Virus record (IMG/VR): IMGVR_UViG_3300035660_000549
Strand: one strand, 5' to 3'
DNA: 64,000 nucleotides
Source: an uncultured virus (IMG/VR IMGVR_UViG_3300035660_000549)
Lineage: Duplodnaviria; Heunggongvirae; Uroviricota; Caudoviricetes
The position numbers were made by a program, and so were the translations under genes. Shown here in pieces: positions 18,413 to 63,655 of this stretch (its first letter is position 1; the number at the start of each line of letters is the position of its first letter). The notes below the pieces were generated by a model, which was not told where the DNA came from, did not search any database, and saw only the letters and a program-made list of their open reading frames with translations.

Positions 18413-18705
18413 TACTTGATCACCTCAACCCATCTGAACCCATATTTTAAAGTTTGCCAATGACTAGTTGGAAAATCAGCACACATCGTAGGTTTTGGAT
18501 TAACAGTACAAATAGCCATTATTGATCCATTTATTCCTGTCTCTATAAACTCTTCACCTGCTTTGAGATCTCTATTCACTTTCCATCTTAGGAACTTACA
18601 ATAAAGATCACAACATCTACCACAACGATTACATTCTCCGATCCTTTTATATTTTTTATGAGGATCAAATTTATCCATACTTCGTGACCTCCGCTTTAAT
18701 ATCAT
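18412..18705 (-). CDS. Small CxxCxxCC (YkgJ-like) metal-binding protein
   Basis: CNRCGRCC...C...KPTMCADFP. Confidence 0.65.
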   Translation of the reverse strand: MILKRRSRSMDKFDPHKKYKRIGECNRCGRCCDLYCKFLRWKVNRDLKAGEEFIETGINGSIMAICTVNPKPTMCADFPTSHWQTLKYGFRWVEVIK

Positions 18706-32654: not shown

Positions 32655-33119
32655 TTATTCAGATCGGTCTCCATAAACAACTATACTTATAGAAGGACAT
32701 AACTCCCTTAAAAACCTAACGACCTGGGGAGTGTCTTCAAAATAGATATCAATCTGCTCCTCTTTTAGAATCTTAGCTTTTAATTCTGCCATTCTCTTAA
32801 ACCATTCTGTTAGACTACCTCCAATATAGTTACCAGGAGGTAGATGAGCAAATATTATTTTGTTGTAAGGAATATTATGTTTCTTCAGCCAGGTATAAGT
32901 GATCTCTTTAATAGGTTCATCTCTACTTGTTATTATTATAATTTCATCTTCTGGTAAGGCTAGTAAACTGGGATCGAACTGTACTTTGCAAGTCTTGTAA
33001 TACCATGATTCCAGTTCTTTTCTGGTCTCTTCTCTAGTTTCAAAGTCTATAGATCTAAGTTTGAATAGATCTATCTCAGCTATAACACCATCCAAATCTA
33101 TACCAATTCGAATGTCTAT
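32655..33119 (-). CDS. HAD-family 5'(3')-nucleotidase-like phosphatase (non-AUG start)
   Basis: The track start cuts HAD motif I; the upstream frame reads IDIRIGIDLDGV, bounded by TAG with no ATG/GTG/TTG. Start ATA 33119 or ATT 33113. Also 'ITSR' and 'YFEDTP'. Confidence 0.8.
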   Translation of the reverse strand: MDIRIGIDLDGVIAEIDLFKLRSIDFETREETRKELESWYYKTCKVQFDPSLLALPEDEIIIITSRDEPIKEITYTWLKKHNIPYNKIIFAHLPPGNYIGGSLTEWFKRMAELKAKILKEEQIDIYFEDTPQVVRFLRELCPSISIVVYGDRSE

Positions 33120-33978: not shown

Positions 33979-34593
33979 CTACTTCACCTCTTTTAATATA
34001 TTCAAAGCTATCTTTATAGCTTTCTTATAATCTATAGAAGCTGGAAGACTTCTATATTCAAAACCATGAGACTTCAATTCATATTCTCCAGGTATCCTAT
34101 TAGATAGAAGGATATCTTCCTTATATTTATTATCTAAGTTTCTAACTATACTTTCTATAGGAAGTTCCCTCTGGAGACATTTGGTACCAAATATCCTCCT
34201 AGAAGAGAAGTGGATGTGTAGACCAGCAGTTGCTAGGTTATTACTGAATCCAGTATGATGAGATTCTTTAGATCCATATATGTTCCTAGTCTGGTCTGGT
34301 AACATTGAATGTCTATACTTCTCTGATATATAGTCCTGGAACTCCTTAGATACTTCTACTGAAGGAGACCTTCTAACTATAAATCCCATTTCTCCAGCTT
34401 TACAGATATTAATTCTCATTAAAGTTTCCATACTATCTGTTATATCCTGGTAGTTGTCTGAATGTTCACTTCTAATCTCTATAAGGAAACCCATCTCATC
34501 AGAAGGGAATCCATATTTGATTGGTTCTAGAATATTATTATCTTTATCTAGGAGGAATAGTTCTAGTTCTGCTCCTACTTCATTTAATATCAT
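33979..34593 (-). CDS. COOH-NH2 ligase type 2 (phiEco32-like), copy 2
   Basis: 'GAELELFL', 'DEMGFLIEIR', 'AGLHIHFS', 'KSHGFEYRSLP'. Confidence 0.75.
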   Translation of the reverse strand: MILNEVGAELELFLLDKDNNILEPIKYGFPSDEMGFLIEIRSEHSDNYQDITDSMETLMRINICKAGEMGFIVRRSPSVEVSKEFQDYISEKYRHSMLPDQTRNIYGSKESHHTGFSNNLATAGLHIHFSSRRIFGTKCLQRELPIESIVRNLDNKYKEDILLSNRIPGEYELKSHGFEYRSLPASIDYKKAIKIALNILKEVK

Positions 34594-38693: not shown

Positions 38694-39464
38694 TTATTCT
38701 CTTCTAGGATTTATATAATTAAATCTTCCTTTTCTCTTTAATAGGGACACAAAGAAGTTCAATATTCTACATATTCCTCTTCCTATTATACAAGGACTAG
38801 GATTGGGAGGAGTTGGTTGAGGAGGGATCTCTCCATCTGGTTCCAGCTGGTACATACACGAGTCTATTTCACTGTCTCCATACTTGACCCAGGCATTTCC
38901 TTCCATTCCCCAGTCTGTACCCCAGCTATTTCTAACTAGCCATGCTCCTAGATCATCATCATAACCAACTATACCTATACAGTGACCTCCTAGGATAGGA
39001 TCACCTAGACCCAGACTATGATAAACCCCAGACTTATAGTTTATGAAAGACTGGTGTACCATCATTGTACTCACTAGAGGAGTAGAATTGAGTAGAGATT
39101 TCATCTCTTCCCTATTTCGTACTTCTCTCCAGGATTTAAGTTTCTTACCAGTTGTCCACCAGTTGTCACATCTTCCCTCTCCACAACTATGGTCTACTCC
39201 ATTATATGGACAACACTCTTCAAGACAGACACCAGGATCTACTGTATAATTCAAAGCAGAATCCATATAACTTCCAGATGAACAGGATCCTCCTGCACAG
39301 AAGAAAAGATCACGTTCACTTATATCAATTGGATCGTTTATAATATTCTCTTTAATTCTTATACAACCTTCCCATGCTCCTATAATCCCATGAGCAACAC
39401 AAGAACCACATTGGCCCTGGTCCCTAATAGAACTTAACCAATTTCTAAGATCACTTTTTGTCAT
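38694..39464 (-). CDS. Papain-family (C1A) cysteine peptidase
   Basis: 'DQGQCGSCVAH', 'GGHCIGIVGY', 'RNSWGTDWG'. Confidence 0.93.
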   Translation of the reverse strand: MTKSDLRNWLSSIRDQGQCGSCVAHGIIGAWEGCIRIKENIINDPIDISERDLFFCAGGSCSSGSYMDSALNYTVDPGVCLEECCPYNGVDHSCGEGRCDNWWTTGKKLKSWREVRNREEMKSLLNSTPLVSTMMVHQSFINYKSGVYHSLGLGDPILGGHCIGIVGYDDDLGAWLVRNSWGTDWGMEGNAWVKYGDSEIDSCMYQLEPDGEIPPQPTPPNPSPCIIGRGICRILNFFVSLLKRKGRFNYINPRRE

Positions 39465-39768: not shown

Positions 39769-40070
39769 AACTTATCAAGACCATATTTTACTAAGAAGCC
39801 TACTATAGTAAAAGCAAGACCTATTGATGTCCATTTCCATTTATCTCTTTGAACTTTCTTTTCAGTCTGGTTATCTTTAATATCTGAAATATCATTCTTC
39901 ATATCATTAAAATCCTTAACGATACCACCTTTCATATCTTCTCCTATGAGAGCTTTTTTAATCATTGCAATGTCTTCTAGTAATGGCAACATAGTAGCTG
40001 TACATTCAACATGAGTAACGAAACCTGGGTTATCCTTCTTCTCAGACATTATAATTTCACCGATAGTCAA
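39765..40070 (-). CDS. Coiled-coil protein with C-terminal TM anchor
   Basis: Heptad region followed by 'WTSIGLAFTIVGFLV'. Confidence 0.5.
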   Translation of the reverse strand: MTIGEIIMSEKKDNPGFVTHVECTATMLPLLEDIAMIKKALIGEDMKGGIVKDFNDMKNDISDIKDNQTEKKVQRDKWKWTSIGLAFTIVGFLVKYGLDKL

Positions 40071-42441
40071 ATAAACTTCTCTGTTTATAACGTTTACTCT
40101 TTATGGCATCTAGGTACTTCTGTACTGGAGATGTTACAGTGTATTCTATTGTCTTAGGATAGTCTATTTCAAACTCCTTTGGTAGATCTTCTATCCTTTT
40201 CAGACCTATAATATTAACGAAGATATTTACTTCTTTCTTTTCCTTACCAATACCAATAGTAACTTTCATTGTCTTCTTTGGTACTATATGGAAAAGGAAG
40301 AACCTGTTTCCCTTCTTGATCTTCTCTTTGGTATACTCTTCACATATCTTTACTGCTTTGTAGTTCCTAGTTAGTGTTTTATATTCATCCTTGGTACATC
40401 TAGGTCTAATAGCAATGTCTTCAAGAGGGATCTTTTTATTAATGATATCTCTTTTAATAGATTCTGTATATCTTCCTATATCATCTTCTTTGTAGTTTAG
40501 AATTAGATTACCAATAGCTTTCTCCACTATACTAGTTATAGGAGCACTCTCCATCCTAACTACTTCTATTCCTTTTACTACTTCTTCTCCTTCTATAGTT
40601 ACTCCCTGGTATCTCTTCTTAGTTATTATTATAACTCTCTTCAGGATATATTCTATCGAGATCTTAAGTTTAGAAGGGACATGGTAATTATCTTCTATAA
40701 ACTTATCAATATGGTCCTGTATTTTCTCTAAGATTTCTTTACTTTCTTTCTCATGGTCTTCTGTCTTCAACTGTACAAATAAACTATCAGTGTCTCCATA
40801 CACCATTTCATATTCTATTTCTTTAACGTACCTGGATACTTCATTGAAGATGATCCTTTCCATTAGAGTAATAGCAGCAGCTACATTAGGTTCATACAAC
40901 CTAGAACCAAAGTACCCATTCTTAGACTGGTATCCATATATTCCATAGCTACAAGCATTTATAATAGATTTCAGAGCATCTGATAGTCTCTTGAATTTGT
41001 CTCTAGTTTCTTTGTCTATAGACTCTCTGACCCACTTCTTTACAAGTTGTCTCCTTTCCCTAAGAGGTCTAACTAGCCTATTAGACTGGCCTTCTTCCCT
41101 AGATGAAAAGAATAGATTTTCTCCTAGCTTGATATCTCCCATCAGTTTAGTATAGGTATCCCAACTAATATGGAAGGTCTCCATTAGAGAAGGATACAGT
41201 TCGGACCAGTCCATCACTAGGATGTAATCATAGATCCCTGGAGATGCTATCACTAGAGCTCCCTTGTACCCTGAAGCTTTAATGTATGAGTAAGACTTCC
41301 AGACTTCTCTACCAGAAGAATCTCTAAGATATAGTATATCTGCTATTTTGTTAGATCCCAAACAATCTGAGAAGGGTAGACCAGTTATCTCCCAAATAGG
41401 AATGATATAGTCTCTAATGAAGTGAAGTTTCTCTTCTAGATCCTTTAGAAGCTTTACATCTCTTAGATTATATTCTAGAACTGCCTTCTTGTTTATCTTC
41501 CAGGTTTTGTATATTTTGTCTTCTAGTATTATCTTTCCATATCCAAGTTCTTTCTTTGCTATGTAGTCTAGAGTATGCCAGACCTGTTCCTTGACTACCT
41601 TCCTATATAGAAGAGCGTAATCCAAAACATCTAGGCAGTGGAAGTGAGGACCTCTGGTAACTACTCCTATAGGAGATAGAAAACTATAGTTCATTCCTAG
41701 GATCTTTAGTCTATTTAAAATATATCCCATATCAAAGGGAGAGAAGGTAACTACTACATCTGGAGATATTTCAGACCATTTCTCTGATAATTTAATATAT
41801 AGATCCTCTTCGTCTTTACAGGGAATTAAGACATATTTACATGCTGGATCTTCTTTAAAGATCTCTATATTTTCTCCTATATAAAACTGGTAATAAGTAT
41901 TCGAAACAGGATCATATAATCCAATAATAATAATTTTATATTTATAAGTTTCATCTTTCCACTCCTCTTCTCCTTCTACTTCGATATCTAGGTAAATCTT
42001 ACGATGCTTAGATTCTATTTCTACTGGTTCTAGTTTATCATTTATTCCAGTATATAGTTTCTTGTCTATTAGAAACCTCTTAGTAAATAATATATTGGAC
42101 TCGTGAAGATGGAAGTACTTACCAGTTCTCTTCTGGAAGGGAGTAGTTAGATTAGTTATCTCTTTAACAGTATACGGATATCGTACATAGACCTTTACTA
42201 GGGGGAAACTCTGTGTAGATTTGTATCCTCTCTCTTCCTTCAGGATACTATCTCTTAGGACTGGGTTCTGTTTAATAAAAGAGTACCACATATTCTGTTG
42301 GTACTCAGGATAATAAAAATATGGAGTGTAAGGGATTAGGATAGGATCCACCCTCTTACCATCTATATCCCTTATAGATAGGACCACTTTAGTTTCTAGG
42401 TCCTCTGTAGAGTAGGAAATACCACAAATACAAAAATCTAT
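40057..42441 (-). CDS. polB: Family B DNA polymerase (probable ATA start)
   Basis: Exo 'YLDIE', 'FD', 'YNLRD'; pol 'DWSELYPS', 'KSIINACSYG', 'YGDTDS', 'KKRY'. Frame extends to ATA 42441 overlapping the ParB TAG, after GGAG. Confidence 0.95.
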   Translation of the reverse strand: MDFCICGISYSTEDLETKVVLSIRDIDGKRVDPILIPYTPYFYYPEYQQNMWYSFIKQNPVLRDSILKEERGYKSTQSFPLVKVYVRYPYTVKEITNLTTPFQKRTGKYFHLHESNILFTKRFLIDKKLYTGINDKLEPVEIESKHRKIYLDIEVEGEEEWKDETYKYKIIIIGLYDPVSNTYYQFYIGENIEIFKEDPACKYVLIPCKDEEDLYIKLSEKWSEISPDVVVTFSPFDMGYILNRLKILGMNYSFLSPIGVVTRGPHFHCLDVLDYALLYRKVVKEQVWHTLDYIAKKELGYGKIILEDKIYKTWKINKKAVLEYNLRDVKLLKDLEEKLHFIRDYIIPIWEITGLPFSDCLGSNKIADILYLRDSSGREVWKSYSYIKASGYKGALVIASPGIYDYILVMDWSELYPSLMETFHISWDTYTKLMGDIKLGENLFFSSREEGQSNRLVRPLRERRQLVKKWVRESIDKETRDKFKRLSDALKSIINACSYGIYGYQSKNGYFGSRLYEPNVAAAITLMERIIFNEVSRYVKEIEYEMVYGDTDSLFVQLKTEDHEKESKEILEKIQDHIDKFIEDNYHVPSKLKISIEYILKRVIIITKKRYQGVTIEGEEVVKGIEVVRMESAPITSIVEKAIGNLILNYKEDDIGRYTESIKRDIINKKIPLEDIAIRPRCTKDEYKTLTRNYKAVKICEEYTKEKIKKGNRFFLFHIVPKKTMKVTIGIGKEKKEVNIFVNIIGLKRIEDLPKEFEIDYPKTIEYTVTSPVQKYLDAIKSKRYKQRSLFDYR

Positions 42442-44257: not shown

Positions 44258-45250
44258 TTATTTAATTATGTCTCTGACCCCTTGGGAGACAATTCTAAAC
44301 CTACATTTTGCTTTGGGTCTATCTGGAGAGTCGGCCAGTACAGCCTCCCATTCCCCTTCTGCTTTAGAAGCCATCTGGTCCAGGCTTAATATATAGGTAC
44401 ACCAATGGAATAGAATATCTCCTCCATAAGCTACCTTAGTATGACCTGTCTTCACTCTTTCTGCTAGTTGCCCTCCAGGATCTGGAATACCCATGACCTG
44501 GCCTGTTAGGATTACTGCTATGTTATACTTAGCAGATATGTTATCCAGGTATCCTAGGTGCCTAGCTTCCTCTCTTGCTCTGTCTGGTAACATTTCTCTT
44601 CCAGAATAGAACTCTCTAAATGCAGCATTGAAGGAGTCTACTACTATTAATCCAACATCCATTTTCTTCTCTAGCATTACCTGTATAGCTCTCTGGTATG
44701 ATAGGTATTGCATATATGGAGTAGATGATCCTGTTGAAGGGATAAATATGAAATCCTTGTCTCCATCTATAGTTACTCCCACTGCTTTGGCCATCTGTTC
44801 AAACCTATCTGGAGAGAAGGTACCCGTCTCAGTTTCTATCCAGATGATCTTTCTTTTAAGATATTTTAGAACATTGATAGCTGCCTGCATTGCTAGCTGG
44901 GTTTTCCCTGATGCATATTCGCCTTTTAATAGATGTAAAGATTCTGTCCTCCATCCTCCTCCTAGGATTTCATCTAGGGCTGTAGATCCCGTAGGTATTC
45001 TCTGGACTACTTCTTTGATATGTCTCTTCTGTTCATTGAAGGTCCTAACTGGGATCACCCTAGGAAGGGCCTTGTCCTTAGCATCATTACAGATGTCCTT
45101 CGCTGCCTTCTTTGTTATGGAGAGCTCAGAAGCAAGTTCTTCAGGTCGCATAGTTGCTAGTTTGTCTACATCTATTTCTAGTTCTCTAAGTTTCTGTGCT
45201 GTTACAGGACCAATTCCCTTTATGTCTTCAAGTTTTAATTCTTCACTCAT
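44258..45250 (-). CDS. radA: Archaeal RadA/Rad51 recombinase
   Basis: N-terminal HhH 'IKGIGPVTAQKL', 'IPTGSTALDEILGGG', Walker A 'GEYASGKTQ', 'ETGTFSPDR', 'IVVDS', 'DSPDRP'. Confidence 0.95.
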   Translation of the reverse strand: MSEELKLEDIKGIGPVTAQKLRELEIDVDKLATMRPEELASELSITKKAAKDICNDAKDKALPRVIPVRTFNEQKRHIKEVVQRIPTGSTALDEILGGGWRTESLHLLKGEYASGKTQLAMQAAINVLKYLKRKIIWIETETGTFSPDRFEQMAKAVGVTIDGDKDFIFIPSTGSSTPYMQYLSYQRAIQVMLEKKMDVGLIVVDSFNAAFREFYSGREMLPDRAREEARHLGYLDNISAKYNIAVILTGQVMGIPDPGGQLAERVKTGHTKVAYGGDILFHWCTYILSLDQMASKAEGEWEAVLADSPDRPKAKCRFRIVSQGVRDIIK

Positions 45251-51614: not shown

Positions 51615-52221
51615 TTATGGATCTAGAGTCTTTAATAAAACCAGAATAGAATATTCATCAAGTTTCTTAAGACCAATTTTATCTAGGATATCATGGAAGC
51701 CAATATGTTTGTGTTCTAGTGCTGTTAAATTTTCTATCACTTCATGATTAATTGCATCAATTAGTTTAGGAATATCTTTATGAAGTTCGCATAATCTCAT
51801 AACTGGTAGAAAGAAGTAGATATTTTGGGTAAGTGGAAACTCTAAAGCTAAAGGAAGATGATCATGAATATTTATCCAGTTGGTAATTCCATCTCTATCA
51901 GGAGAATGTTCTATATCCTTTTTCTTACTTAGAAAATAATACTCCATGCTATTCTTCCTCAATTCTAGTAACATGATAATTGGGGAAATAGACTCTCTTC
52001 TTTATTCCTTCATTTCTTTCATTATGTTTAGAAATAGATATTCTAATATTACCACATCTATTACATTCTCTCTTATTAACATCATATATAGACCCTGGCG
52101 ATCCATGTTTGAAATCATCATGTAATCCTAAGAAACATAAAATCCTTAGAAGTCTATCTCTTCTAGATTTCTTCTTCTTCCTTTCCTTACGAGAGAAAGA
52201 TACTTTAAAAGAACTAGACAT
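51615..52221 (-). CDS. Two hypothetical ORFs (51615-51974; 51949-52221 with C-H...CxxC Zn ribbon)
   Basis: ORF track; 'CFLGLH...CNRCG'. Confidence 0.5.
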
Positions 52222-53062
52222 TCTTTTTCTCTACTTCTCTTTCTTTATATCGCTTCCTTCCTAATATGAAATTCTTACTATCTAGATTATACTGTTTCAG
52301 ATCTTCTTCATAGTTCTTCCAGATATTAATAATACTAAGTTTCTCATTCCATGTCCTCTTGAGATCTATCATCTTAAATAGGAAGTCTATCTCCTCCTGG
52401 AAATCTTTGTACATTTTCATATTATGGATCCTAGTGAAGATATCTTTTAGATATTTATTGAAGAATTCAAGATCTCCTTCAGCATGACGGTCTCTTACAA
52501 TATCTCTATCCTCTTCTTCAGATTCTATCATAGAAATATCCTTAAGTTCTTCATTTATGTCTATTTCATTCTCTATAGTAAAGGCTAGACATAGAGTTCC
52601 TCTACAGATGAATGGATCCACTAGCCAACTTGGAGGTACTCTAAACTCCCATCCATGACGATTACTTCTAGCATCTCCTAGATCTCCATATTCTTCTCTT
52701 CTTTCAGAATTGAATGGATATTCTTCTATAAACAGATATGGAATAGAGAAATAGTAATCAAAGTACTTACAATGATCTTGTTTACCATCTAGATGAATAT
52801 GCCCTCCTAAAAAATTTCCATTCATTCCTCCACTGGATCCAGCTTTCACTTGGTAACCATTATATTTCTGGTCAATCTTTAGAATCAGTTTCCTAATATT
52901 ATCAAAATGCTTTAGAGGATCTACAGTAGCGATAGGTCTTAGTTCTCCTACATAATTACAGCCATCATGACCTATCCTTACAGCATTCTTCACAAGATCA
53001 TAAGCATATTCTACTTCTCCATCCTTTACAAATAGAAACTCTGGATCTGATCCTATTTTCAT
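52214..53062 (-). CDS. COOH-NH2 ligase type 2 (phiEco32-like amidoligase)
   Basis: 'IGSDPEFLF', 'IGHDG', 'GELRP', 'GGHIH', 'YG..GD.R...HGWEFRVPPSWL'. Confidence 0.88.
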   Translation of the reverse strand: MKIGSDPEFLFVKDGEVEYAYDLVKNAVRIGHDGCNYVGELRPIATVDPLKHFDNIRKLILKIDQKYNGYQVKAGSSGGMNGNFLGGHIHLDGKQDHCKYFDYYFSIPYLFIEEYPFNSERREEYGDLGDARSNRHGWEFRVPPSWLVDPFICRGTLCLAFTIENEIDINEELKDISMIESEEEDRDIVRDRHAEGDLEFFNKYLKDIFTRIHNMKMYKDFQEEIDFLFKMIDLKRTWNEKLSIINIWKNYEEDLKQYNLDSKNFILGRKRYKEREVEKKNV

Positions 53063-53231: not shown

Positions 53232-53996
53232 TCATATTTTATCTCCAATATCTCCTGTGTAATATCTTCTAATATATCTATCAAGAGAAATTTGAATACT
53301 TGATTTATGGTAAGGAATTAGATCGTCTTTCAAATTAATTAGTATTATTTGTAAATGGTTTAATTCGTTTAAACAATCATTTTGTAATTTAGATGAAGAA
53401 TCTTTATAGTTAATATAATTATCTAGCAATTCTTTACAGAACAAAGTTTCTATATATTCTAACTGTTTAGGAATATTATAGATTACTTCCTTATGGAGAC
53501 CTAATATAATTCCTTCCATCAATATTTTATAAGATTGTAATAGTAATTTATCCATTCCATATCTTTTAAGTCTAGTTTCATTACTCATATCTTTGACCAG
53601 AGATTGGTAATAACCTAAACAATGATCCAAATATCCAGAATGAATATTCTCTAGAACTATATTTTGTAGTTCCTTTACTAATTTAGAATTTTCATAAAGT
53701 TTCTCTTCAAATAGATTATCTAGTGAATTACCATTTCCTGAAGCTAATAGTCTAAGATAATGATTAATAGGGTATTCAGTAACATCTATCCTGGAAGATT
53801 TCTCTTGATATTCTTTTGGTCTAGGTTGAAAGAATGGAGAAACCATCTGTTGTAAAGCTGGGAAATATACCCTCCTGATATCCAGATCACTATCTTGTCT
53901 AGACCATCCATAAGCATAAGAACCAGAGATAGCAATGAATAGAGAATTCTGTATACCAGAATTATCTATCCAGTATTCAAATCCTTTATACTTCAC
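53232..53996 (-). CDS. Pol-beta superfamily nucleotidyltransferase (RlaP/YcgL-like)
   Basis: 'SGSYAYGWSRQDSDLDIR', 'GNGNSLD'. Confidence 0.82.
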   Translation of the reverse strand: MKYKGFEYWIDNSGIQNSLFIAISGSYAYGWSRQDSDLDIRRVYFPALQQMVSPFFQPRPKEYQEKSSRIDVTEYPINHYLRLLASGNGNSLDNLFEEKLYENSKLVKELQNIVLENIHSGYLDHCLGYYQSLVKDMSNETRLKRYGMDKLLLQSYKILMEGIILGLHKEVIYNIPKQLEYIETLFCKELLDNYINYKDSSSKLQNDCLNELNHLQIILINLKDDLIPYHKSSIQISLDRYIRRYYTGDIGDKI

Positions 53997-54924: not shown

Positions 54925-55446
54925 CTATTTTTTCTTGTCTTTCTTCCACTTCCCATACTCCTTGAGGATCTCGTTTATTGTAATAGGAAAAAAATTCCAT
55001 TGATCTACGCCCACATTGCAACAGTCATAAGAAAACTCATAGAACTTAATAGTAGTATAACGCCAGAGATCATGTGCGTGTCCACATAATACTAAATAAT
55101 ACCCTGGTCCAGCTTCTTCTGCCCTGTGAGTAAGTAATATATCTTTCCCACCATAATAGATCCTCATATCTTTAATTATAGACTTCATATTATTGGAACT
55201 ATCATGGTTCCCAGCAACTAATATTATTTGCCCATTCAATCTGTCTAGAATATTCTTAATCTCATTTTTACTAAGTTTGAATGCGAAGTCTCCTAGATGG
55301 AAAACTGTGTCCTCTGGTTTTACCCTGGAGTTCCAGTTCTTTATTAGGGTCTCATCCATATGATAGATATTCTTGAAGGGTCTATGAGAATATTTAATTA
55401 TTTTCTCATGGCCCCAATGGGTATCTCCAGTGAAGTAGTAATTCAA
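54925..55446 (-). CDS. Calcineurin-like metallophosphoesterase
   Basis: 'GDTHWGH', 'HLGDF', 'GNHD', 'GHAH', 'NVGVD'. Confidence 0.9.
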   Translation of the reverse strand: MNYYFTGDTHWGHEKIIKYSHRPFKNIYHMDETLIKNWNSRVKPEDTVFHLGDFAFKLSKNEIKNILDRLNGQIILVAGNHDSSNNMKSIIKDMRIYYGGKDILLTHRAEEAGPGYYLVLCGHAHDLWRYTTIKFYEFSYDCCNVGVDQWNFFPITINEILKEYGKWKKDKKK

Positions 55447-55736: not shown

Positions 55737-56444
55737 TTATTCTATTACTGAATGATGCCCTTCTTTCAGTAATGTCTTTAGGTCCAAGACATCTCTTAAA
55801 TAGTTTTCCTTGACCAGTGGAAGAGAGATTAGGCCAGATACTCCTTTAGATATAAAAATAGAATATCTCTTAAGTTCTGGTCTTTCATCTCTCTCCTTAT
55901 AGATATCTTCTAGAAAGTCTAGGAAATCTTGACCAATGAACCTCTTTAGAACAGACCTATCATATGGATTGAGTGAACTATCCTTTATAATGATTCCATC
56001 AATAGTGGTCCTCAATTCAACTGGGACCGAGTGAAATCTGTGAAGTGATATTAGACTTAGAATGTATCCATTAGATAGATTGTACCTTTGTTTGAAGAGA
56101 TGTCTTATCCTAAAGTACCTCATCAGAGTTTCCTTCTCTAAAGGTCTTAGTGTTACATTGTCAGCAAATAGAATGTTTACCAGCACTGGCTTTAGACCCC
56201 ATCTTAGAAGAAGATCCAGGTCTCCATTCTCTGATACTGCACAGTTTACATTGTCTTTACCATACTTCTTGTTAGCATAGTATCCTAGAGCATTTACAGT
56301 AGTTGTTTTACCAGATCCCTGATATCCAAAGATTATGAAGTTCTTAAAGATAATATTGTTGCTTTCATAGTTTATGTCTGGTTTCCTTTCTATTATCTTC
56401 TTATTTGGGAATAGCATCTTGAAGAAATCTTCATTTACCAGCAT
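55737..56444 (-). CDS. P-loop NTPase of unknown function
   Basis: Walker A 'GYQGSGKTT', Walker B-like 'ILFADN'. Confidence 0.7.
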   Translation of the reverse strand: MLVNEDFFKMLFPNKKIIERKPDINYESNNIIFKNFIIFGYQGSGKTTTVNALGYYANKKYGKDNVNCAVSENGDLDLLLRWGLKPVLVNILFADNVTLRPLEKETLMRYFRIRHLFKQRYNLSNGYILSLISLHRFHSVPVELRTTIDGIIIKDSSLNPYDRSVLKRFIGQDFLDFLEDIYKERDERPELKRYSIFISKGVSGLISLPLVKENYLRDVLDLKTLLKEGHHSVIE

Positions 56445-56988: not shown

Positions 56989-57789
56989 TTATTCTCTATT
57001 TCTAACTTCAACTATTAATCTTTCAACTTCTATGGAATGAATTCCTTCATATTCACATACACCGATTGCTAGTTGTATGAAATTATAAATTCTATCTGTT
57101 TCACTAGATGGTATGAAACCAATAAAAATTCCTCCTTCATTAATTATAGTACATCCATGAAATAGACTATGTAGGTTGGAAGGAAGAGATCCTAAAACTT
57201 CATCTGTAAAATAACAATTTAGAAAGATCGAATTATGGAAATCAAAGTCTGGATTTCTAAAAACTTCATTGTAGTATATAATATCATATTCCTGTATTTC
57301 TCTTAGAGCTTCTGAAATATTGTTTGGTCTGGATGTAGTTTGAATTGTTATTTCATGAGGTCCTGAAACACTATCCCAATGGATTCCACTATTATCTTGA
57401 ATAAAAGACTGTCTAGGAGCTTCTGTTGGAGTTCCTAGAATCTCAGGAGGAGTTGGTACTTCATCTCTTTCTAAATCTATCCCTTGATCTATATCATCTA
57501 CTATTCTCTGGTAACTTCTGATAGCGGTAGATAGATAATCATGGATCTCATTTAATAGTTTCTTTTTCTTCTTAGTATTCCACTTCTCTACTACAACAGA
57601 ATGTGAACCCAGACTTAGTATCCTAACTTCATAGTCTCCTATAGTACACTTTTCTATTATCTTTCCTTTAGGATAGAAGTATTCATTTTCCCTAGTACAC
57701 TTCCAACACCTCCAGGTTCCAGTAGAATCTATATAACCTTCATTAGATCGATGTTTGGGACACTTGAATTCCATCTTCTTTTTCTTCAT
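56989..57789 (-). CDS. Hypothetical protein with N-terminal Zn ribbon
   Basis: CPKH...CWKC. Confidence 0.55.
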   Translation of the reverse strand: MKKKKMEFKCPKHRSNEGYIDSTGTWRCWKCTRENEYFYPKGKIIEKCTIGDYEVRILSLGSHSVVVEKWNTKKKKKLLNEIHDYLSTAIRSYQRIVDDIDQGIDLERDEVPTPPEILGTPTEAPRQSFIQDNSGIHWDSVSGPHEITIQTTSRPNNISEALREIQEYDIIYYNEVFRNPDFDFHNSIFLNCYFTDEVLGSLPSNLHSLFHGCTIINEGGIFIGFIPSSETDRIYNFIQLAIGVCEYEGIHSIEVERLIVEVRNRE

Positions 57790-58251
57790 TTATTTTCCTT
57801 CTTTTATTTTAACCATTTTGATCTTTATAATCTCATCATAAGAAGTATTCTTCTTCTTGATATGGGACCAGTATAGAGTTATTAATCCAGCAGAATTTAG
57901 ATTTCCTAGAGCTCCTATATACTTATGAGGAAGGCTTAGGATAGCCACTGGATATTTTATGTATCTAAGGAAGTTGTATAAAGTCCTTTCAGTTAAAGAA
58001 AGACTTTTCTTTTCTTTAGTACTCTCTTCTTTTTCTATATTCTTTCCAGAAAATATAGGATTAAAGAATGGACAGATTGTTATAACACTAGGATCATGTA
58101 GCATTGGGTTAAACATTAGGCCAGTGTCTGGGCAATACCACTCTTGTGAATTATTAATCTTCAGAGGATATGGTTTAGTACAATCCATACAGTTATTAGT
58201 TATAAATACTCCCTGCCTATCATTCTTGATTCTCTTATTCTTCTTCTTCAA
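57790..58251 (-). CDS. Hypothetical protein (Cys cluster plus possible wHTH)
   Basis: CMDC...CP...CP; 'LSLTERTLYNFL'. Confidence 0.5.
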   Translation of the reverse strand: MKKKNKRIKNDRQGVFITNNCMDCTKPYPLKINNSQEWYCPDTGLMFNPMLHDPSVITICPFFNPIFSGKNIEKEESTKEKKSLSLTERTLYNFLRYIKYPVAILSLPHKYIGALGNLNSAGLITLYWSHIKKKNTSYDEIIKIKMVKIKEGK

Positions 58252-59149
58252 CTACCCAACCTTCCTCACTATTTAGTTTCTGGAAGAATATAGAAGACAT
58301 TTTCTGATGGTATGTTTTAGAATCTAGGAAATACTTTAATGAATTCATTCTGGTAGGATCTATATCTAATAGATAGAAAGTAGAATCTTTGATAAATAGA
58401 TCTACTACTCCATTCCCTAGCATTATTTTATTAACTAGGAGTTTAGCTATTCCTTCTAGGTCTTTTCTATTGACTTCTAATTCTTTAGATAGTTCTATGA
58501 TTTCTTTCTTTTCTTCTTTTGAAGGTTCTTCATATTTAATTGTTCTAGTATATTGACTTGTAATTCTAATGGCTTCCTTATATCGTGATCCTTCTGGGCA
58601 GTATAGAATAGTCTTATCATACTTATAGAATTTATATAGACTTCCAACTACCTCTCCTAGGAATGTATAAATTTCTATTGTTGGAAACCATGTTTTATCT
58701 AGATCTACTTCTAAAGGAGATAGCAAATGGTTCTTCTGCCATTCTGCTATTTTAGTAGAATCTAGGATTGGAAGTTCTTTATCTGTATCATAATCTACTA
58801 GATATTTAGTATTAGGAATAGTGGAGGAAAAGAATGGTAAAGTATCTATTTCATTCCCTAGAGTAATAAAAAGAGAAGGCTTGTCTTTTACTAGTTCTAA
58901 AGTAGAAGGATATGAATCTAGAAGATATCCTTTCCCTTTTAGAAACTGTAAGTTTCCAGGATTATATTCTGGTCTAAAAATAATACAGGTCTCTGGGTAA
59001 CATGCTATATTTGAAGCAGAGAAGAAAGTATTATGCCACTTTACTGATTGTGCATAGATAGGAACTTTATCCAGATCAGTAAATAGTTTGACCAGATATT
59101 CCCTGTCCTCATCCAGAGTACTATATACTAGCAATACTAAGTCTTTCAA
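58235..59149 (-). CDS. Divergent RimK-like ATP-grasp protein
   Basis: 'LVKDK', 'LGNGVVDLF...FYLLDID' correspond to RimK DK and G.D...Y.LE.N motifs, with ExN changed to DID. Confidence 0.55.
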   Translation of the reverse strand: MKDLVLLVYSTLDEDREYLVKLFTDLDKVPIYAQSVKWHNTFFSASNIACYPETCIIFRPEYNPGNLQFLKGKGYLLDSYPSTLELVKDKPSLFITLGNEIDTLPFFSSTIPNTKYLVDYDTDKELPILDSTKIAEWQKNHLLSPLEVDLDKTWFPTIEIYTFLGEVVGSLYKFYKYDKTILYCPEGSRYKEAIRITSQYTRTIKYEEPSKEEKKEIIELSKELEVNRKDLEGIAKLLVNKIMLGNGVVDLFIKDSTFYLLDIDPTRMNSLKYFLDSKTYHQKMSSIFFQKLNSEEGWVVEEEE

Positions 59150-59154
59150 TACTC

Positions 59155-60306
59155 TTAACTCCTATAGCCCTTCAGACCATCCTGTTCATGACCTAAAAAA
59201 TAAACTAGGTCAAAGTCTGGATCTTTGTTGTTCTCACTACAACCATGAGTATTGATACACTTTTCACAGTAGAACTTCTTACACCTAGAACAGAATATAG
59301 AAGTCTTCATGTCTACAACTACTTTACACTCTCTACATATACATTTCTCATTCTTTTCAGTCTTCTCTTCTTCCTTGGTTTCCTTCTCTTCTTCTTCTTT
59401 AGTTGCTTTCGGATTTAGATCCTCATAATGTGTTGTAGTCTTATTCTTATGGTAACATTCTATACAACGATCTTTCTCTAAGTTTCCTATCTTTACTTTC
59501 TCACATGGAAGATGATTAGTACCACAGAAATCACAGGATATAATTCTATTGAAGACCCATCCTCCTTCTTTTACTTTAGCTTCATTCCATTCACCATATA
59601 GTTCTGCTTTGGTCTCTCCTTTCTCTCTCCATATCTTAACTAAGGAAGAAGATTCCTCTGGAATATACAATGTCATACTAGAATCTTTAAAATTGGGAGA
59701 CTTTAAGAATTCTCTTACTCCATCGAATTCAGAAGCAATAATAAAGCTTCTGTCTATCTTAACTAGAACAAATGAAGATTCAGGTATTCCATACAGAGTA
59801 CCATCTTTGAATAGAATAATCATGTTTCCATCTGATAGTGGGTAGAACTTCTCTATTGCTTTTTCCCTAGGATATTTCTTAAGAAGTTCTTCTAGAATAT
59901 GTACAAAGATTTCTGTATCTGCTCCAGATTCTCTATTATGCCCTAAAGAATCTAGGAGTTTTCCTACATATTTATAACTGGTAAAGGTACCGTTGTGGAC
60001 TAGTGCAAAGTTTCCATTCTCACTTAGAAATGGATGTGCTTCCTTATCTTCTTCCCTATCTACTATATTAGTACTGGCCGATCTGTTATGCCCAATAGAA
60101 ATATCAGAATCTACTTTAGATAGATCTCTGGTTACTTCCATTCTAAACTTAAGGGGAGGAATAGCTTTCTTTAGAACAATTATCTTTCCAGATTCTATAT
60201 AAGCTACTCCAGAAGCATCTGTCCCTCTAGACTGTTGTGCTACTATTATATCTAGTATCTTCAGAGGAGCATTCTTTATTCCATATAGACAACATATTCC
60301 ACACAT
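59155..60306 (-). CDS. Class II (Ntn) glutamine amidotransferase with C-terminal Cys-rich domains
   Basis: 'MCGI', 'SRGTDASG', 'GHNRSAS', 'AHPF', 'VHNG', 'DTE'. Confidence 0.93.
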   Translation of the reverse strand: MCGICCLYGIKNAPLKILDIIVAQQSRGTDASGVAYIESGKIIVLKKAIPPLKFRMEVTRDLSKVDSDISIGHNRSASTNIVDREEDKEAHPFLSENGNFALVHNGTFTSYKYVGKLLDSLGHNRESGADTEIFVHILEELLKKYPREKAIEKFYPLSDGNMIILFKDGTLYGIPESSFVLVKIDRSFIIASEFDGVREFLKSPNFKDSSMTLYIPEESSSLVKIWREKGETKAELYGEWNEAKVKEGGWVFNRIISCDFCGTNHLPCEKVKIGNLEKDRCIECYHKNKTTTHYEDLNPKATKEEEEKETKEEEKTEKNEKCICRECKVVVDMKTSIFCSRCKKFYCEKCINTHGCSENNKDPDFDLVYFLGHEQDGLKGYRS

Positions 60307-60307
60307 T

Positions 60308-61216
60308 CTAAATACATTCTCCTAAATTTAACCAGTCTTCTTTTGTTTTGTAATCATTGTAAATATACTTGCTTTTTATCTTATCATCTTCAAAGAACTC
60401 TTCCCAAGTTATCCTTCCATTAATAAAATCTAGTTCAAATGATTTCCAGTCAAATAGATTATTACAACGGTTACAATAGGAAAATGAAGGGAATGTAAAG
60501 TCTGGAGCTTTAAGAGAACCACACTTTATACATTCAGTATTTTTAGAAGCATATTCCTCAAAATGTTTTAGATCAAATAAAACTTCAATATTCTGACTTC
60601 TGTTAGAGTTATCGGATGAAGAAGATGTAATTATACTTGGATCGAAGTTCTTAAGGAATTCTTTTAGAATATCCACATCTAGGGATGACAAACATGCATC
60701 ACATAGAGGAATATCTCTATATGATTTTTGATTACACCTAGAACATCTATTGTATTTTCTCTCTATATCTATCTCGTGAGAGAATGCTGTTACTAGGAAA
60801 TTAATAAACCTAGTTAGAGTATGTTGATCATACATTATACTAGCATCTGTGTCTATCTCAATAAATATATTAGGATTAGGAAGACATGGAACTATATTTA
60901 GATCAAATTTCTTAGCTAGTAATCCTAGTTCTCTAGTTAATTGTAAACTTGAAGAAGAGACCCGTATTCCTTTTGCATTTAAATAATCCCAGCTTTTAAA
61001 GAAAGAGATATCTTCAGATACTCCTTCCTGTTTGTAATGAAGTGGTCTTCTAGTGAACTTGCGAAGGAGATATGCTGGAATAAATATGTCTATGGATTTA
61101 GGAACATTGATGGCTCTAGATCTAATTTTCCCTGGGAGAGATGGGCTCTGTACATATTCTGGAAATACTTTAACAGCTTCTAATACTCCTTCCTTGATTA
61201 TTTCTTTGTTTATTAT
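60308..61216 (-). CDS. Hypothetical protein with Zn ribbons, 302 aa (ATA start)
   Basis: Frame is open 127 codons upstream of the track ATG with no ATG/GTG/TTG; ATA 61216 overlaps the upstream TAA, with GGAGG 10 nt upstream. Confidence 0.7.
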   Translation of the reverse strand: MINKEIIKEGVLEAVKVFPEYVQSPSLPGKIRSRAINVPKSIDIFIPAYLLRKFTRRPLHYKQEGVSEDISFFKSWDYLNAKGIRVSSSSLQLTRELGLLAKKFDLNIVPCLPNPNIFIEIDTDASIMYDQHTLTRFINFLVTAFSHEIDIERKYNRCSRCNQKSYRDIPLCDACLSSLDVDILKEFLKNFDPSIITSSSSDNSNRSQNIEVLFDLKHFEEYASKNTECIKCGSLKAPDFTFPSFSYCNRCNNLFDWKSFELDFINGRITWEEFFEDDKIKSKYIYNDYKTKEDWLNLGECI

Positions 61217-62559
61217 TGTATAGCATCCTCCAGAAGTTGTAATGCAGATAGAAAATTCTTTGAAGGAATAAGATTGCCAGTAAGTTCATCTTCTTTAACA
61301 ACATCAAGCATCAGAAGTTTATTTACAAGTCTAGAAGAGAAGAGAGACTGTAGAGATCCTTTAGCTTTCTGTATGGCTGTAATAATATTATGAAAATCTT
61401 TCATATGTGGATCAACCAATAAATCCATTAGATCAATAAACCTCTCTGTAGAAGGGAGATCTTCTATTTTTAGATTGTCTATAATGTCTTTAAATTCTTC
61501 TATGGAAATATGATCTTCTAGTTTAGGAAGTATGTCATTACCTGGGTTTGGAAGAGAATTAATTATGGGAACTAGATTATAAGAATCTTTAGTAAGTTTC
61601 TGTACAAAGAACCTATATTCTGATTTGTCTTCAGTTCTATTCCATTGTTCTAGGATCTTATCAGATACAGTATTTCCTTCTGCTACTGTTTCATAGAAAT
61701 CAAAGACCTCTTTCTTCAAAGTAGCAGAAACATCTTCTAAGATTTCTTTTAACCTATCTTTGTTAGAAGTGTAGAAACTCCTCCATAACTCTGTTATTGG
61801 AACATATACTTTCTTAGTCTTAATGCCAGAATATGTGATAGAAGAAGGAAGATATATAGGAATTACTGATCTACTTCCATACATTACTACTCTTTCATAT
61901 ATTTCTTCATTATTGAATACTGGTAAAGATTGATTATCACTATCTTCTAGGAGTAACCTAATAACTCCAGCTATTCCTATTATCTGGAAGAGAGGACTTG
62001 AAGAAGGAATTCTACATTCTAGAGTATCTCCGTTCTCTCCCTTAGCTAGAGCCATCCAGTGATCTCCATTTGAATCTCCAAATTCAGTAAACCTAGACCA
62101 TGAAGAGAATGCTAATCTAACATCTGAAGCTCTGTATACTCCTCCAAATATAGGAGAGTTAGCAGATAGAAGAGCTATTAGAGGTTGAGCATTGAACAAG
62201 ATCTTACTCATCTCTACCCATGATTCTGGAGACATTCCTTTTAGAGAAGTATGGATATGACCAGAACAGAAGTCATCATAGTATGGATAGTTTCCTAGTA
62301 AAGAATATATCCATTTCTCTTCTTCACATATCCCTAGACACTTTTGAATTACATATGCCAGGTGATCAGCTAATTCTCCCAGTGTTGGATATGGATCACT
62401 AGGAAACTCTGGTTTATTATCATCAAAATAGAAGCGACTGAATATATTTCTAAATTCTCCTTCTGCTAATTGATGATCTCCTTCATATCTTATGAATGGA
62501 GACTTCTCTATAGGAATTATATTTCCTTCTAGTTCCACACCTTGCTTATTTACCTTGAT
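61213..62559 (-). CDS. Carboxylate-amine ligase (GCS2/YbdK-like), probable ATC start
   Basis: 'GVELEG', 'SGHIHTS', 'PLIALLSANSP', 'TLECRI'; AGGAGG, 8-nt spacer, ATC 62559 restores the strand before GVELE. Confidence 0.8.
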   Translation of the reverse strand: MKVNKQGVELEGNIIPIEKSPFIRYEGDHQLAEGEFRNIFSRFYFDDNKPEFPSDPYPTLGELADHLAYVIQKCLGICEEEKWIYSLLGNYPYYDDFCSGHIHTSLKGMSPESWVEMSKILFNAQPLIALLSANSPIFGGVYRASDVRLAFSSWSRFTEFGDSNGDHWMALAKGENGDTLECRIPSSSPLFQIIGIAGVIRLLLEDSDNQSLPVFNNEEIYERVVMYGSRSVIPIYLPSSITYSGIKTKKVYVPITELWRSFYTSNKDRLKEILEDVSATLKKEVFDFYETVAEGNTVSDKILEQWNRTEDKSEYRFFVQKLTKDSYNLVPIINSLPNPGNDILPKLEDHISIEEFKDIIDNLKIEDLPSTERFIDLMDLLVDPHMKDFHNIITAIQKAKGSLQSLFSSRLVNKLLMLDVVKEDELTGNLIPSKNFLSALQLLEDAIQ

Positions 62560-62571
62560 ACTTTATTCCTC

Positions 62572-62793
62572 CTATAAGGACTTAATACTATTCTTTTTTG
62601 ATCCCCTGGAATATGGGGAGAGGATCAGAATTACATCTTTACCTTCTAGACCTTTTAATAATCTGATAGTGGTCTTTAGAGTACTTTCTTTATCTTTAGT
62701 GAACAGAATACAGCCTTCTCTATCTGTGGTCATTGTTATTCCAGTAATCTTACAATATATTTCTACTGGTCTTTCTTCAGACAAACTATTCAT
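62572..62793 (-). CDS. Hypothetical protein
   Basis: 73 aa ORF within the ligase operon, overlapping the upstream gene. Confidence 0.45.
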   Translation of the reverse strand: MNSLSEERPVEIYCKITGITMTTDREGCILFTKDKESTLKTTIRLLKGLEGKDVILILSPYSRGSKKNSIKSL

Positions 62794-63655
62794 CTCTTCT
62801 AATTATACATCTAATTCTAATTGGTAAATTAATCTTGTTTATTCCTTCATTTGATCTCAACCAGGGATAGTCTTCTATCTTAGGTTGATCACCTAGGATT
62901 CCTTCTTTGAATAAGAAATCTTTGATAATAAAGGAATATAACTGTCTTCCAAATTTGTTCAAACGTACTGCTGAGTTCGCTTCTAGAATATATGGTACAC
63001 CTTCTTCAGATACTATTACGTCTATTCCTCCAAAGTTTATTCCTAGAACTTTAGAAGCTTTGATACATTCTTCAATTATTTTCTCTTCTAGAGGATAATC
63101 ATGTTCATATATATCTGATAGAATGTATCCATGATCCACATTTCTAATCCAGTATTCTCCTCTAGTTGGTACTTTCTTCTGTATTCTAATAACTTCATTG
63201 TTGAATAAATGAACTCTATATTCTCTAGTAGAATAGATATACTCTACAAAATAGTCTCCATCCACTCCATTTAGCTGGAGTCTATCATCCACTCTAATAA
63301 TGTCTCTTCCCCTACTATGAAATCTTAGTCTGCTCAACACTGGAAATTTATGAGAAGGAATAGTTTCTTTCCTAGTGTAAACTATAGGAGTTCTAATTCC
63401 ATTCTCTAAAAGAAACCTAGAACATCTTAGCTTGTCTTTAACTAGGTTTACTACTTTAGAGTTGTTTAATACTATTTTAAATCTCCATTCTCTTCTAGGA
63501 CTGGAAGATACTCCATATCTAATCAGACAGTCTCCATTCTCTATCCCAGATAGAGTATTGATAGGGGTAAACCCGGAATATTCAGCTAGTTTTCTTCCTG
63601 TAGGCTTAGAGTAAAGACTAGACTCCATAAATGTTAAGAGATAGATATTTGCCAT
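62786..63655 (-). CDS. RimK-like ATP-grasp ligase
   Basis: 'KDK', 'HSRGRDI', 'EYRVH', 'WIRN', 'FGGIDV', 'YILEANSA'. Confidence 0.9.
   Translation of the reverse strand: MANIYLLTFMESSLYSKPTGRKLAEYSGFTPINTLSGIENGDCLIRYGVSSSPRREWRFKIVLNNSKVVNLVKDKLRCSRFLLENGIRTPIVYTRKETIPSHKFPVLSRLRFHSRGRDIIRVDDRLQLNGVDGDYFVEYIYSTREYRVHLFNNEVIRIQKKVPTRGEYWIRNVDHGYILSDIYEHDYPLEEKIIEECIKASKVLGINFGGIDVIVSEEGVPYILEANSAVRLNKFGRQLYSFIIKDFLFKEGILGDQPKIEDYPWLRSNEGINKINLPIRIRCIIRRDE

Follow-up and report, generated by a model that had tools for sequence, protein, structure and literature searches.

A candidate archaeal-virus counterpart of the phiEco32-type amidoligase cassette, possibly devoted to glutamate-type amide modification

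INTRODUCTION

Phages of the phiEco32, LUZ24 and PA11 types carry a gene cassette that combines two kinds of ligase, COOH-NH2_lig (PF14395) and Amidoligase_2 (PF12224), with a class II glutamine amidotransferase (GATase) and an ATP-grasp protein, often accompanied by an AIG2/GGCT-like protein. Iyer, Abhiman, Burroughs and Aravind are reported to have predicted this phage amidoligase cassette from sequence data in 2009. In PA11 the run consists of genes for a GATase, an aminotransferase, a COOH-NH2 ligase, a hypothetical protein, an amidoligase and an ATP-grasp protein, after which come primase/helicase genes; in Kuravirus SGF2 it consists of an amidoligase, a GATase, two small genes, an ATP-grasp and a YtfP/GGCT-like gene, again followed by primase/helicase; and the gene table of the LUZ24-like phage UFV-P2 gives the same gene order (PMC3890496). 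Here we analyse a run of six genes at positions 58235-63655 of a 64,000-nucleotide stretch (called the window in what follows) from an uncultured tailed virus, IMG/VR record IMGVR_UViG_3300035660_000549. We hold, with confidence that is evenly balanced, that this run is the archaeal-virus form of the phiEco32/LUZ24/PA11-type cassette and that it builds a glutamate-type amide modification on a macromolecular target.

No experimental function of the cassette was found in the searchable literature. Genome papers repeat the 2009 prediction, i.e. cell-wall modification or secondary-metabolite synthesis (PMC10580990, PMC11706807), and the usual guess is a modification of the cell wall that blocks superinfection (PMC10580990). 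The idea of such a cassette in archaeal viruses is already in print: a 2025 paper reports amidoligase, GATase and metallophosphoesterase genes in the Poseidoniales virus Vyasavirus and likens them to those of phiEco32 (PMC11706807). As far as that description goes, Vyasavirus resembles our case in being an archaeal tailed virus with amidoligase and GATase genes; it differs in that these genes are annotated there as auxiliary, and the passages concerned, on which the comparison is based, contain nothing on the anatomy of the cassette, on accessory proteins or on a pair of ATP-grasp proteins.

RESULTS

Predicted enzymes of the cassette and their relatives in phages

All six genes lie on the minus strand. 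Three of the products look catalytically competent, as far as sequences and models allow one to judge: a RimK-type ATP-grasp amide ligase (62786..63655, 289 amino acids), a YbdK/GCS2-type carboxylate-amine ligase with a C-terminal winged helix (61213..62559) and a class II, or Ntn, glutaminase of the PurF/GlmS type with two C-terminal zinc fingers (59155..60306, 383 amino acids). The remaining three look non-catalytic: a small conserved protein of 73 amino acids with an invariant lysine, Lys33 (62572..62793), a 302-amino-acid protein with two zinc ribbons (60308..61216) and a protein of 304 amino acids (58235..59149) whose modelled ATP-grasp fold and decayed catalytic motifs make it a probable pseudoenzyme or adaptor. 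A preliminary description of this DNA had named five of these genes, all but the small one; they do exist on the minus strand where it had placed them, and its superfamily assignments hold by Pfam, PHROG, models and motifs. In the profile searches that it had proposed as a check, RimK and GATase_6 score above the Pfam cut-off and GCS2 below it, the fold of the ligase being assigned from its model.

The 289-residue protein matches Pfam RimK (E 1.2e-6, 28.7 bits, cut-off 21) and PHROG 2599 (E 3.2e-31), as well as the NCBIfam models rimK_fam (4.7e-13) and MptN (5.9e-10), both of these below their cut-offs. Residues E145-Y-R147, D212 and E225-x-N227 are invariant in 12 sequences of its family, and the family alignment retains the motifs EYR, DFGxD and LExN, which suggests that the enzyme is probably active. 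It shares its ATP-grasp motifs and its best family matches with RimK, LysX, ArgX and MptN, but it stays far below the NCBIfam cut-offs (49 versus 143 bits for rimK_fam), its N-terminal domain is short and no S6 or LysW-like acidic-tailed partner is present in the window.

This protein connects the cassette with phages. With tblastn it found relatives in 229 phage records of INPHARED, mostly Escherichia (92) and Pseudomonas (84) phages, including Kuravirus and PA11-type phages. Iterated jackhmmer profiles started from PA11 gp008 and from the SGF2 ATP-grasp reached the window protein at 8.6e-60 and 5.6e-53, respectively. The glutaminase was likewise matched by the PA11 gp004 profile, at 1.6e-38; the SGF2 GATase profile matched nine of the related contigs presented below, though not the window glutaminase itself. 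A member of the PF14395 family, i.e. a phiEco32-type COOH-NH2 ligase of type 2 and the second glutamine synthetase (GS)-like ligase of the window, is encoded at 52214..53062 on the minus strand (282 amino acids; E 2.4e-37, 129 bits) and belongs to the same family as PA11 gp005. A possible third GS-like ligase of 204 amino acids (33979..34593, minus strand) was reached by iterated jackhmmer from PA11 gp005 (2.6e-24) and from the 282-residue ligase (4.4e-6); searched alone, it has no Pfam or PHROG match.

Neighbourhoods of ATP-grasp relatives in IMG/VR were surveyed with iterated profiles, within 7 kb, for the 80 best of at least 496 loci. Among these best 80, an Amidoligase_2-type ligase was found in 70-72, a GATase in 59-63, a PF14395 ligase in 58, a PA11 gp006-like protein in 52, a GGCT-like protein in 25 and a metallophosphoesterase in 13. 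Since the ATP-grasp protein, the glutaminase and the PF14395 ligase are homologous to the phage proteins and co-occur in unrelated phages, the enzymatic core can be equated with that of the phage cassette; the likeness to phiEco32 noted in the preliminary description is thus borne out by the 229 phage records, by the PA11 and SGF2 neighbourhoods and by the 80 IMG/VR loci. The two cassettes also resemble each other in their site among early and replication genes and in that neither has an identified product. They differ in several respects: the window has a YbdK/GCS2-fold ligase with a winged helix in the position of Amidoligase_2, the zinc fingers of its glutaminase replace the long C-terminal part of the phage proteins, and its set includes three lineage-specific accessory proteins and comes with a probably archaeal host.

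The YbdK/GCS2-fold ligase counts 448 amino acids when read from ATC 62559 and 441 in the shorter reading from GTG 62538 (61213-62538). Only one of 22 homologues has a precomputed PF04107 match, and a sequence-profile search of the PDB with the family alignment returned only chance matches (best 0.25, to cofilin). The fold was taken from the model (predicted local distance difference test score, pLDDT, 87.9), in which residues 1-317 superpose on the YbdK-type structure 1tt4 with Z 29.0 and a root-mean-square deviation of 2.5 Å over 293 residues (Foldseek E 5.6e-9). Plant glutamate-cysteine ligase (2gwc) follows with Z 25.4, then Dop and PafA with Z 17.9-19.4 and glutamine synthetases with Z 13-15. 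This agrees with the GCS2-like ligase of the preliminary description, which had however missed the C-terminal winged helix made up of residues 370-441 (Z 7-8.7 to STIV F93 and to MarR/PadR proteins). In an alignment of 22 sequences, residues E2, E4, D39, D40, K42, E44, H94, H96, R141, E174 and R176 show no or almost no variation, and these acidic, His and Arg residues are presumably equivalent to the active-site residues of YbdK. The likeness to the YbdK/GCS2 ligases (1tt4, 1r8g) and to glutamate-cysteine ligases thus lies in the fold and, presumably, in the acidic, His and Arg residues conserved on strands that line the active-site funnel; the differences are an identity of 14-15%, a sub-threshold Pfam score and the added C-terminal helical region with its winged helix. 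In a profile comparison with the PF14395 ligase the probability was 1.3%, only a GHIH motif being aligned. The family is small, with 22 members among 5.8 billion clustered proteins, and single-protein scans of IMG/VR with the ligase and with the glutaminase found no relative of either.

The glutaminase starts with MCGI and matches Pfam GATase_6 (E 8.3e-11, 42.5 bits, cut-off 27), the N-domain of GlmS (5.6e-19) and PHROG 13807 (E 4.2e-15). In the alignment with PurF in the PDB (1.2e-7) the motifs MCGI, RGxDAxG, GHxR, HPF, HNG and DxE correspond, and 11 glutaminase sequences conserve the N-terminal Cys nucleophile, RGxD, GHNR, HPF, the oxyanion pair (H/Q)NG and DxE, with the Asp that binds the amino group of glutamine. 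Past about residue 230 there are only two zinc-finger modules and no fused synthase (acceptor) domain. Both modules are conserved in the same 11 sequences (CDxC...DRCxxC and CxxC-x11-CxxC-x4-C-x2-[CHD]-x3-HxC), the second with a cross-brace-like spacing; a weak match of the finger of one relative to Prok-RING_2 (0.0028, below the cut-off) is a lead only.

With these three enzymes, a pathway for a small molecule has to be considered, in which the ligases would produce a gamma-glutamyl compound in free form and the glutaminase would supply ammonia or hydrolyse the gamma-glutamyl group. Conceivable products are a glutathione-like gamma-Glu-X-Y peptide, the amide of a dipeptide, or an amine or polyamine bearing a gamma-glutamyl group. 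The ligase is indeed closer to YbdK and the glutamate-cysteine ligases (Z 29.0 and 25.4) than to the protein ligases PafA and Dop (Z 18-19), and the glutaminase retains the residues that bind free glutamine. Glutathione is made in two steps by a GCS2-type ligase and a GshB/RimK-type ATP-grasp enzyme, and pathways for the gamma-glutamylation of amines usually pair a GS-like ligase with an amidohydrolase; both parallels count for this explanation, as does the GGCT-like gene near the cassette in 25 of the 80 best IMG/VR loci. However, such a pathway leaves the winged helix, the zinc fingers, the zinc-ribbon protein, the pseudo-ATP-grasp protein and the small protein without an obvious role, Pfam searches of the window revealed no transporter or further tailoring enzyme nearby, and the window has no GGCT-like gene. 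We give this explanation a smaller, although appreciable, share of our confidence.

The accessory proteins

The 304-residue protein has no Pfam, PHROG or NCBIfam family, and only 10 relatives were found among 1.84 billion representatives. Its model (pLDDT 87.1) shows a full three-domain ATP-grasp fold: Foldseek matched it to RimK 5zct with E 2.9e-9 (probability 1.00) and to RimK, MdnC, PsnB and ArgX/LysX at 3e-9 to 2e-7, and residues 1-295 superpose on RimK 4iwx with Z 13.9, on ArgX with Z 13.7 and on PsnB with Z 13.0. We take all 50 structural matches listed for it to be ATP-grasp proteins. When catalytic positions are mapped through the fold match and a weak profile alignment (the comparison of the 289- and 304-residue families has a probability of 2.2%), ExR is not conserved among the 11 family members, the E position holds D or N in 10 of them and the N position varies. 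Residues Y51, P52, K71, D78, Y80, S82 and G165, in the N-terminal half, are conserved instead. The second ATP-grasp protein had been called degenerate in the preliminary description, which is a fair label, the fold being present, ExR gone and ExN variable; by sequence and model the protein would be inactive.

The small protein shares an invariant K33 and L46 in 13 aligned sequences, and its C-terminus is variable in them, with no conserved Gln or Glu at the end. No Pfam family was found at a meaningful E-value for any of the 13 members, nor was there a PDB sequence match; its Atlas model is of low confidence (pLDDT 0.46) and gives an OB-like fold as a lead only. Fused, longer forms of the protein were sought and none was found, which is weak evidence. 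A complex prediction for the ligase and the 73-residue protein, made without controls, scored 0.00, a value that speaks neither for nor against an interaction.

As to the zinc-ribbon protein, its 175-residue C-terminal part contains four CxxC pairs and has only weak matches to double zinc ribbons, and neither the Atlas nor Pfam searches of the full protein gave a fold or family for the N-terminal half. The C-termini are not conserved in its family. In the clade of the related contigs L008 and L010, a 119-residue zinc-ribbon protein (L008:1509-1865, L010:739-1095), without a PDB sequence match, replaces the small protein, and its strongly acidic tail ends in Glu.

These features invite comparison with systems in which a small protein is the substrate. 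As in pupylation (PafA, Dop and Pup), genes for a GS-fold ligase, for an enzyme that hydrolyses amides and for a small protein stand together in the cassette, and PafA and Dop are among the structural matches of the ligase (Z 17.9-19.4). In contrast to pupylation, YbdK and glutamate-cysteine ligase are far better matches, the hydrolase is an Ntn glutaminase without a Dop-like GS fold, and the small protein lacks a conserved C-terminal Gln or Glu. Compared with the LysW/LysX carrier system, the zinc-ribbon protein of the window lacks a conserved acidic tail ending in Glu, whereas the 119-residue protein of L008 and L010 is reminiscent of LysW in its layout. One may thus imagine a viral protein-tagging or carrier-protein system with the small protein encoded between the ligases as covalent substrate, i.e. 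a protein of 60-90 residues with one invariant Lys in most relatives and the acidic-tailed zinc-ribbon protein in L008 and L010. Glutamylation would take place on the lysine or on the terminal Glu, the second ligase and the glutaminase would extend or amidate the product, and the pseudo-ATP-grasp protein would present the substrate. We consider such a system unlikely; if it existed, it would mean that pupylation- or LysW-like chemistry was invented in viruses, with an enzymatic core common to hundreds of bacteriophages.

Gene junctions and non-canonical start codons

The genes follow each other closely. The start of the 73-residue gene overlaps the stop of the ATP-grasp gene by 8 nt, and its own stop lies 12 nt ahead of ATC 62559 in the ligase gene. 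The ligase frame is open 5′ of GTG 62538, and ATC 62559, preceded by GGAGG, occupies the position of the Met of the homologues: reading from ATC gives I-K-V-N-K-Q-G-V-E-L-E, to be compared with the homologue consensus M-K-V-x-K-Q-G-I-E-L-E. In L001, GTA replaces GTG (the ATC was checked in the window and in L001), so that only ATC, or an in-frame ATA two codons 5′ of it, yields the essential ExE strand. Judging by these sequences, ATC 62559 is most likely the start of the ligase.

A second case is the apparent gap of 377 bp between the ligase and zinc-ribbon genes, which is an open frame (the zinc-ribbon frame is open from at least 61240). While the canonical ATG 60835 would give only the C-terminal 175 amino acids (60308-60835), reading from ATA 61216-61214, which overlaps the ligase stop codon (ATAA), gives 302 residues. 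This longer reading aligns over its whole length with two homologues: its residues 6-284 correspond to 2-280 in the L004 protein (E 3e-22), and the L003 protein is matched at E 1e-19. Both homologues have 330 amino acids, with ATGA at the ligase/zinc-ribbon junction. The ATAA junction is common to three independent assemblies (window, L001 and L002), more distant relatives using ATG there. When contigs of four sediment runs were compared, a 3-nt deletion at 61021, seen in contigs of two other runs, left the zinc-ribbon frame intact.

With the ATA and ATC starts, the genes from the ATP-grasp gene to a 266-residue gene downstream of the cassette all overlap or lie no more than 12 nt apart, an arrangement that would fit termination-reinitiation coupling. 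Because the genes overlap or abut and two non-canonical starts lie at the preceding stop, they probably form one coupled translation unit whose products probably cooperate, and, by gene spacing and coupling, they are probably an operon. The tightly packed run of the preliminary description is therefore real as regards overlaps and short spacers, but a sixth gene had been overlooked in it, the apparent gap is coding and the ligase probably starts further upstream, at ATC.

Coupled downstream are two small Cys-rich proteins of 153 and 266 amino acids (56989..58251, minus strand), whose membership of the cassette is uncertain. The start of the 153-residue gene overlaps the stop of the 304-residue gene by 17 nt, and the 266-residue gene follows without a spacer. 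No family was found for either protein in Pfam or PHROG; their homologues follow the cassette in L004, L006, L010, L019 and L021. A P-loop NTPase of 235 amino acids (55737-56444), in which only Walker A regions match (SRP54), is kept downstream of the cassette in the same five contigs.

Conservation of the gene order

A metagenome scan for the ligase yielded 25 contigs (L001-L025), with an identity of 30-47% for most of the ligases. Counted among the contigs long enough to reach the gene in question, the thresholds for reach being our own choice, the ATP-grasp gene is present in 16 of 16, the glutaminase gene in 13 of 13 and the pseudo-ATP-grasp gene in 8 of 8; a homologue of the small protein occupies the same position in 17 of 22, and 10 of 13 have the zinc-ribbon gene. 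In the more distant contigs, the zinc-ribbon and pseudo-ATP-grasp proteins were detected with iterated profiles. Several relatives have additional GS-like ligases adjoining the cassette, and PF14395-like genes stand beside it in L004 and L007. Since the order is kept in divergent contigs wherever they are long enough, the outcome that the preliminary description had made a check of its proposal, the cassette is more than a chance assembly.

The same data could still be explained if the genes had no common function and were neighbours through viral collinearity alone, each enzyme acting singly: the 25 order-keeping contigs may all come from a single virus family, and synteny extends to the replication genes on the flanks. 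But ATP-grasp, GATase and GS-like ligase genes co-occur in unrelated bacterial podoviruses and in most of the 80 IMG/VR loci, and the start/stop overlaps and stop-proximal non-canonical starts also speak against mere neighbourhood. We therefore think this explanation highly improbable.

The viral genome and its probable host

Nearly all long open reading frames (ORFs) of the window are on the minus strand, and the sequence is one strand of a tailed virus. Pfam searches identified a tail tube protein (3357-4181), an HK97-type capsid protein (6551-7642), a family B DNA polymerase (40057-42387), a RadA/Rad51 recombinase with an HhH domain (44258-45250), an ERCC4 nuclease, and an anaerobic ribonucleotide reductase with its activase. 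The polymerase frame is open for 34 codons 5′ of the first canonical start (to about 42489), which is possibly a further non-canonical start, and a papain-family cysteine protease (38694-39464, E 3.9e-35) adjoins the polymerase block.

The virus is likely to be archaeal, as had been supposed, because RadA, family B polymerase and ERCC4 are encoded in the window and the named relatives of RadA are all archaeal. RadA relatives on metagenome contigs form a clade at 40-77% identity, and the four that bear an organism name come from Ignisphaera sp., Methanomethylicota, Thermoprotei and Nanoarchaeota; the Ignisphaera RadA record and a homologue of the cassette ligase share one contig of 43,984 bases. 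A genome scan with RadA for the host gave a single irrelevant match of 29 residues. DNA of the window is present in sediment metagenomes, and neither the 5.4-kb cassette DNA (blastn) nor the capsid protein (tblastn) had a match among 50,697 phage records. Pseudomurein-bearing methanogens are possible hosts, so that the host may have a wall that contains peptides.

The cassette lies inside the replication and nucleotide-metabolism block of the window, and in phages it adjoins primase/helicase genes. This would suit a role in hypermodification of DNA or nucleotides, in which the ligases would link an amino acid or an amide to a base with a carboxyl or amine group and the winged helix and zinc fingers would bind DNA. 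In viral contigs, amidoligase and glutamine-amidotransferase domains, with functions unassigned, are found together with genes for thymidine hypermodification (PMC8989533), and an ATP-dependent amide ligase acting on carboxymethylcytosine in DNA has been characterised, some homologues of which have a glutamine-hydrolysing domain (PMC12783734). However, the ligase CmoY is a homologue of asparagine synthetase and differs in fold, and no enzyme that could install a handle (a thymidylate-synthase-like hydroxymethylase, TET/JBP, 5-hmdU kinase, aGPT-Pplase, CmoA/CmoX and DpdA were sought) was found in the 64-kb window, beyond which the contig of 77.7 kb extends for another 13.7 kb, or among 51 flanking ORFs taken from five related contigs. 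On balance we doubt that DNA is modified in this way.

A few other genes deserve mention. Genes of the RNA-repair type surround the cassette in the window and in L004, L006 and L021: a polynucleotide-kinase-like protein, an RlaP nucleotidyltransferase and a metallophosphoesterase (32655-33095, 53232-53996 and 54925-55446 in the window) and, in related contigs, Rnl2-type RNA ligases. A block at 23041-31500, identified with Pfam, contains nucleotide-sugar, glycosyltransferase and radical-SAM genes, namely two nucleotidyltransferases, an NAD-dependent epimerase/dehydratase, two or three glycosyltransferases, a B12-binding radical SAM enzyme and a radical SAM/SPASM enzyme fused to a glycosyltransferase-like N-terminus; these genes would make up a viral route to an unusual sugar or glycan. 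The 1613-residue protein encoded at 9336-14177 has an ATP-dependent DNA ligase domain confined to residues 591-792, the remainder being without a family. The related virus contig L021 also encodes an eRF1 domain 1 protein (273-764, E 1.6e-10) and a nicotinamide phosphoribosyltransferase (18461-19882, E 4.4e-47).

DISCUSSION

Folds, motifs, synteny and the homology of the ATP-grasp protein, the glutaminase and the PF14395 ligase are the observations on which our interpretation of the cassette as an archaeal-virus form of the phage system is built; the substrates, the order of the steps, the formation of a complex and the macromolecular target are what we infer. During infection, successive ATP-dependent steps would build a glutamate-type amide on a macromolecular target. 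In a first step, the ATP-grasp enzyme would form an acyl-phosphate on a carboxylate and, in the manner of RimK, LysX and MptN, add an amino acid, which would most probably be L-glutamate. In a second, the GS-fold ligase would phosphorylate a carboxylate, possibly the gamma-carboxylate, and couple to it an amine or the ammonia that the glutaminase releases from glutamine; alternatively, the glutaminase would trim a gamma-glutamyl group. The accessory proteins, together with the added winged-helix and zinc-finger domains, would hold the target. The nearest families of the ATP-grasp protein (RimK, MptN, LysX) add L-glutamate to a carboxylate, the nearest folds of the ligase activate the gamma-carboxyl of glutamate, and the glutaminase retains residues for holding a free glutamine or a gamma-glutamyl moiety. 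Because the families of all three enzymes act on amides at carboxylates, typically of glutamate, a stepwise modification of this kind is the most economical explanation. Since the lineage-specific additions look like macromolecule-binding or adaptor modules, we favour, with moderate confidence, a protein or nucleic-acid target over a free metabolite.

Several observations weigh against this interpretation. As regards linkage, all the order-keeping contigs may belong to one collinear virus family, and, with the flanking replication genes syntenic too, conservation shows retention under selection and not by itself functional linkage; the independent support from bacterial phages extends only to the ATP-grasp protein, the glutaminase and the PF14395 ligase, the last of which is encoded 5 kb downstream, outside the six-gene run. 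As regards composition, the GCS2-like ligase, the pseudo-ATP-grasp protein and the zinc-ribbon protein of the window were found in none of the 80 IMG/VR loci, and in a scan with its alignment the ligase family was absent from IMG/VR and from one genome per GTDB species; these three and the small protein (for which IMG/VR and GTDB were not searched) turned up only in the present viral lineage. Conversely, no cassette protein has a Pfam match to Amidoligase_2 (PF12224), the PA11 gp007 and SGF2 amidoligase profiles, which detected 70-72 of the 80 IMG/VR loci, have no match in the window or in L001-L025, and nor has the SGF2 YtfP profile for an AIG2/GGCT-like protein. The 441-residue ligase scores below the cut-off of Pfam GCS2 (PF04107; E 0.0029, 17.4 bits against 21). 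Zinc ribbons are not universal, since in L008-L010 the gene in that position encodes a 274-residue protein without CxxC pairs. Finally, winged helices and zinc fingers are also compatible with regulation or with small-molecule enzymes.

The cassette is a variant of a known viral system, and its main value is comparative. The phage cassette is widespread, its ATP-grasp protein being present in 229 INPHARED records and at least 496 IMG/VR contigs. To the extent that the host is archaeal, as is probable, the presence of the same core in this virus would speak for a target that occurs in both Bacteria and Archaea and would weaken the peptidoglycan hypothesis; DNA or nucleotides, the translation or replication machinery and universal metabolites such as glutamate and polyamines are candidates for such a shared target. 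Of separate, minor interest for translation initiation in archaeal viruses are the conserved putative starts, ATA and ATC, that coincide with or closely follow a stop codon. The archaeal variant offers candidate substrates or adaptors in the small Lys protein, the zinc-ribbon protein and the pseudo-ATP-grasp protein.

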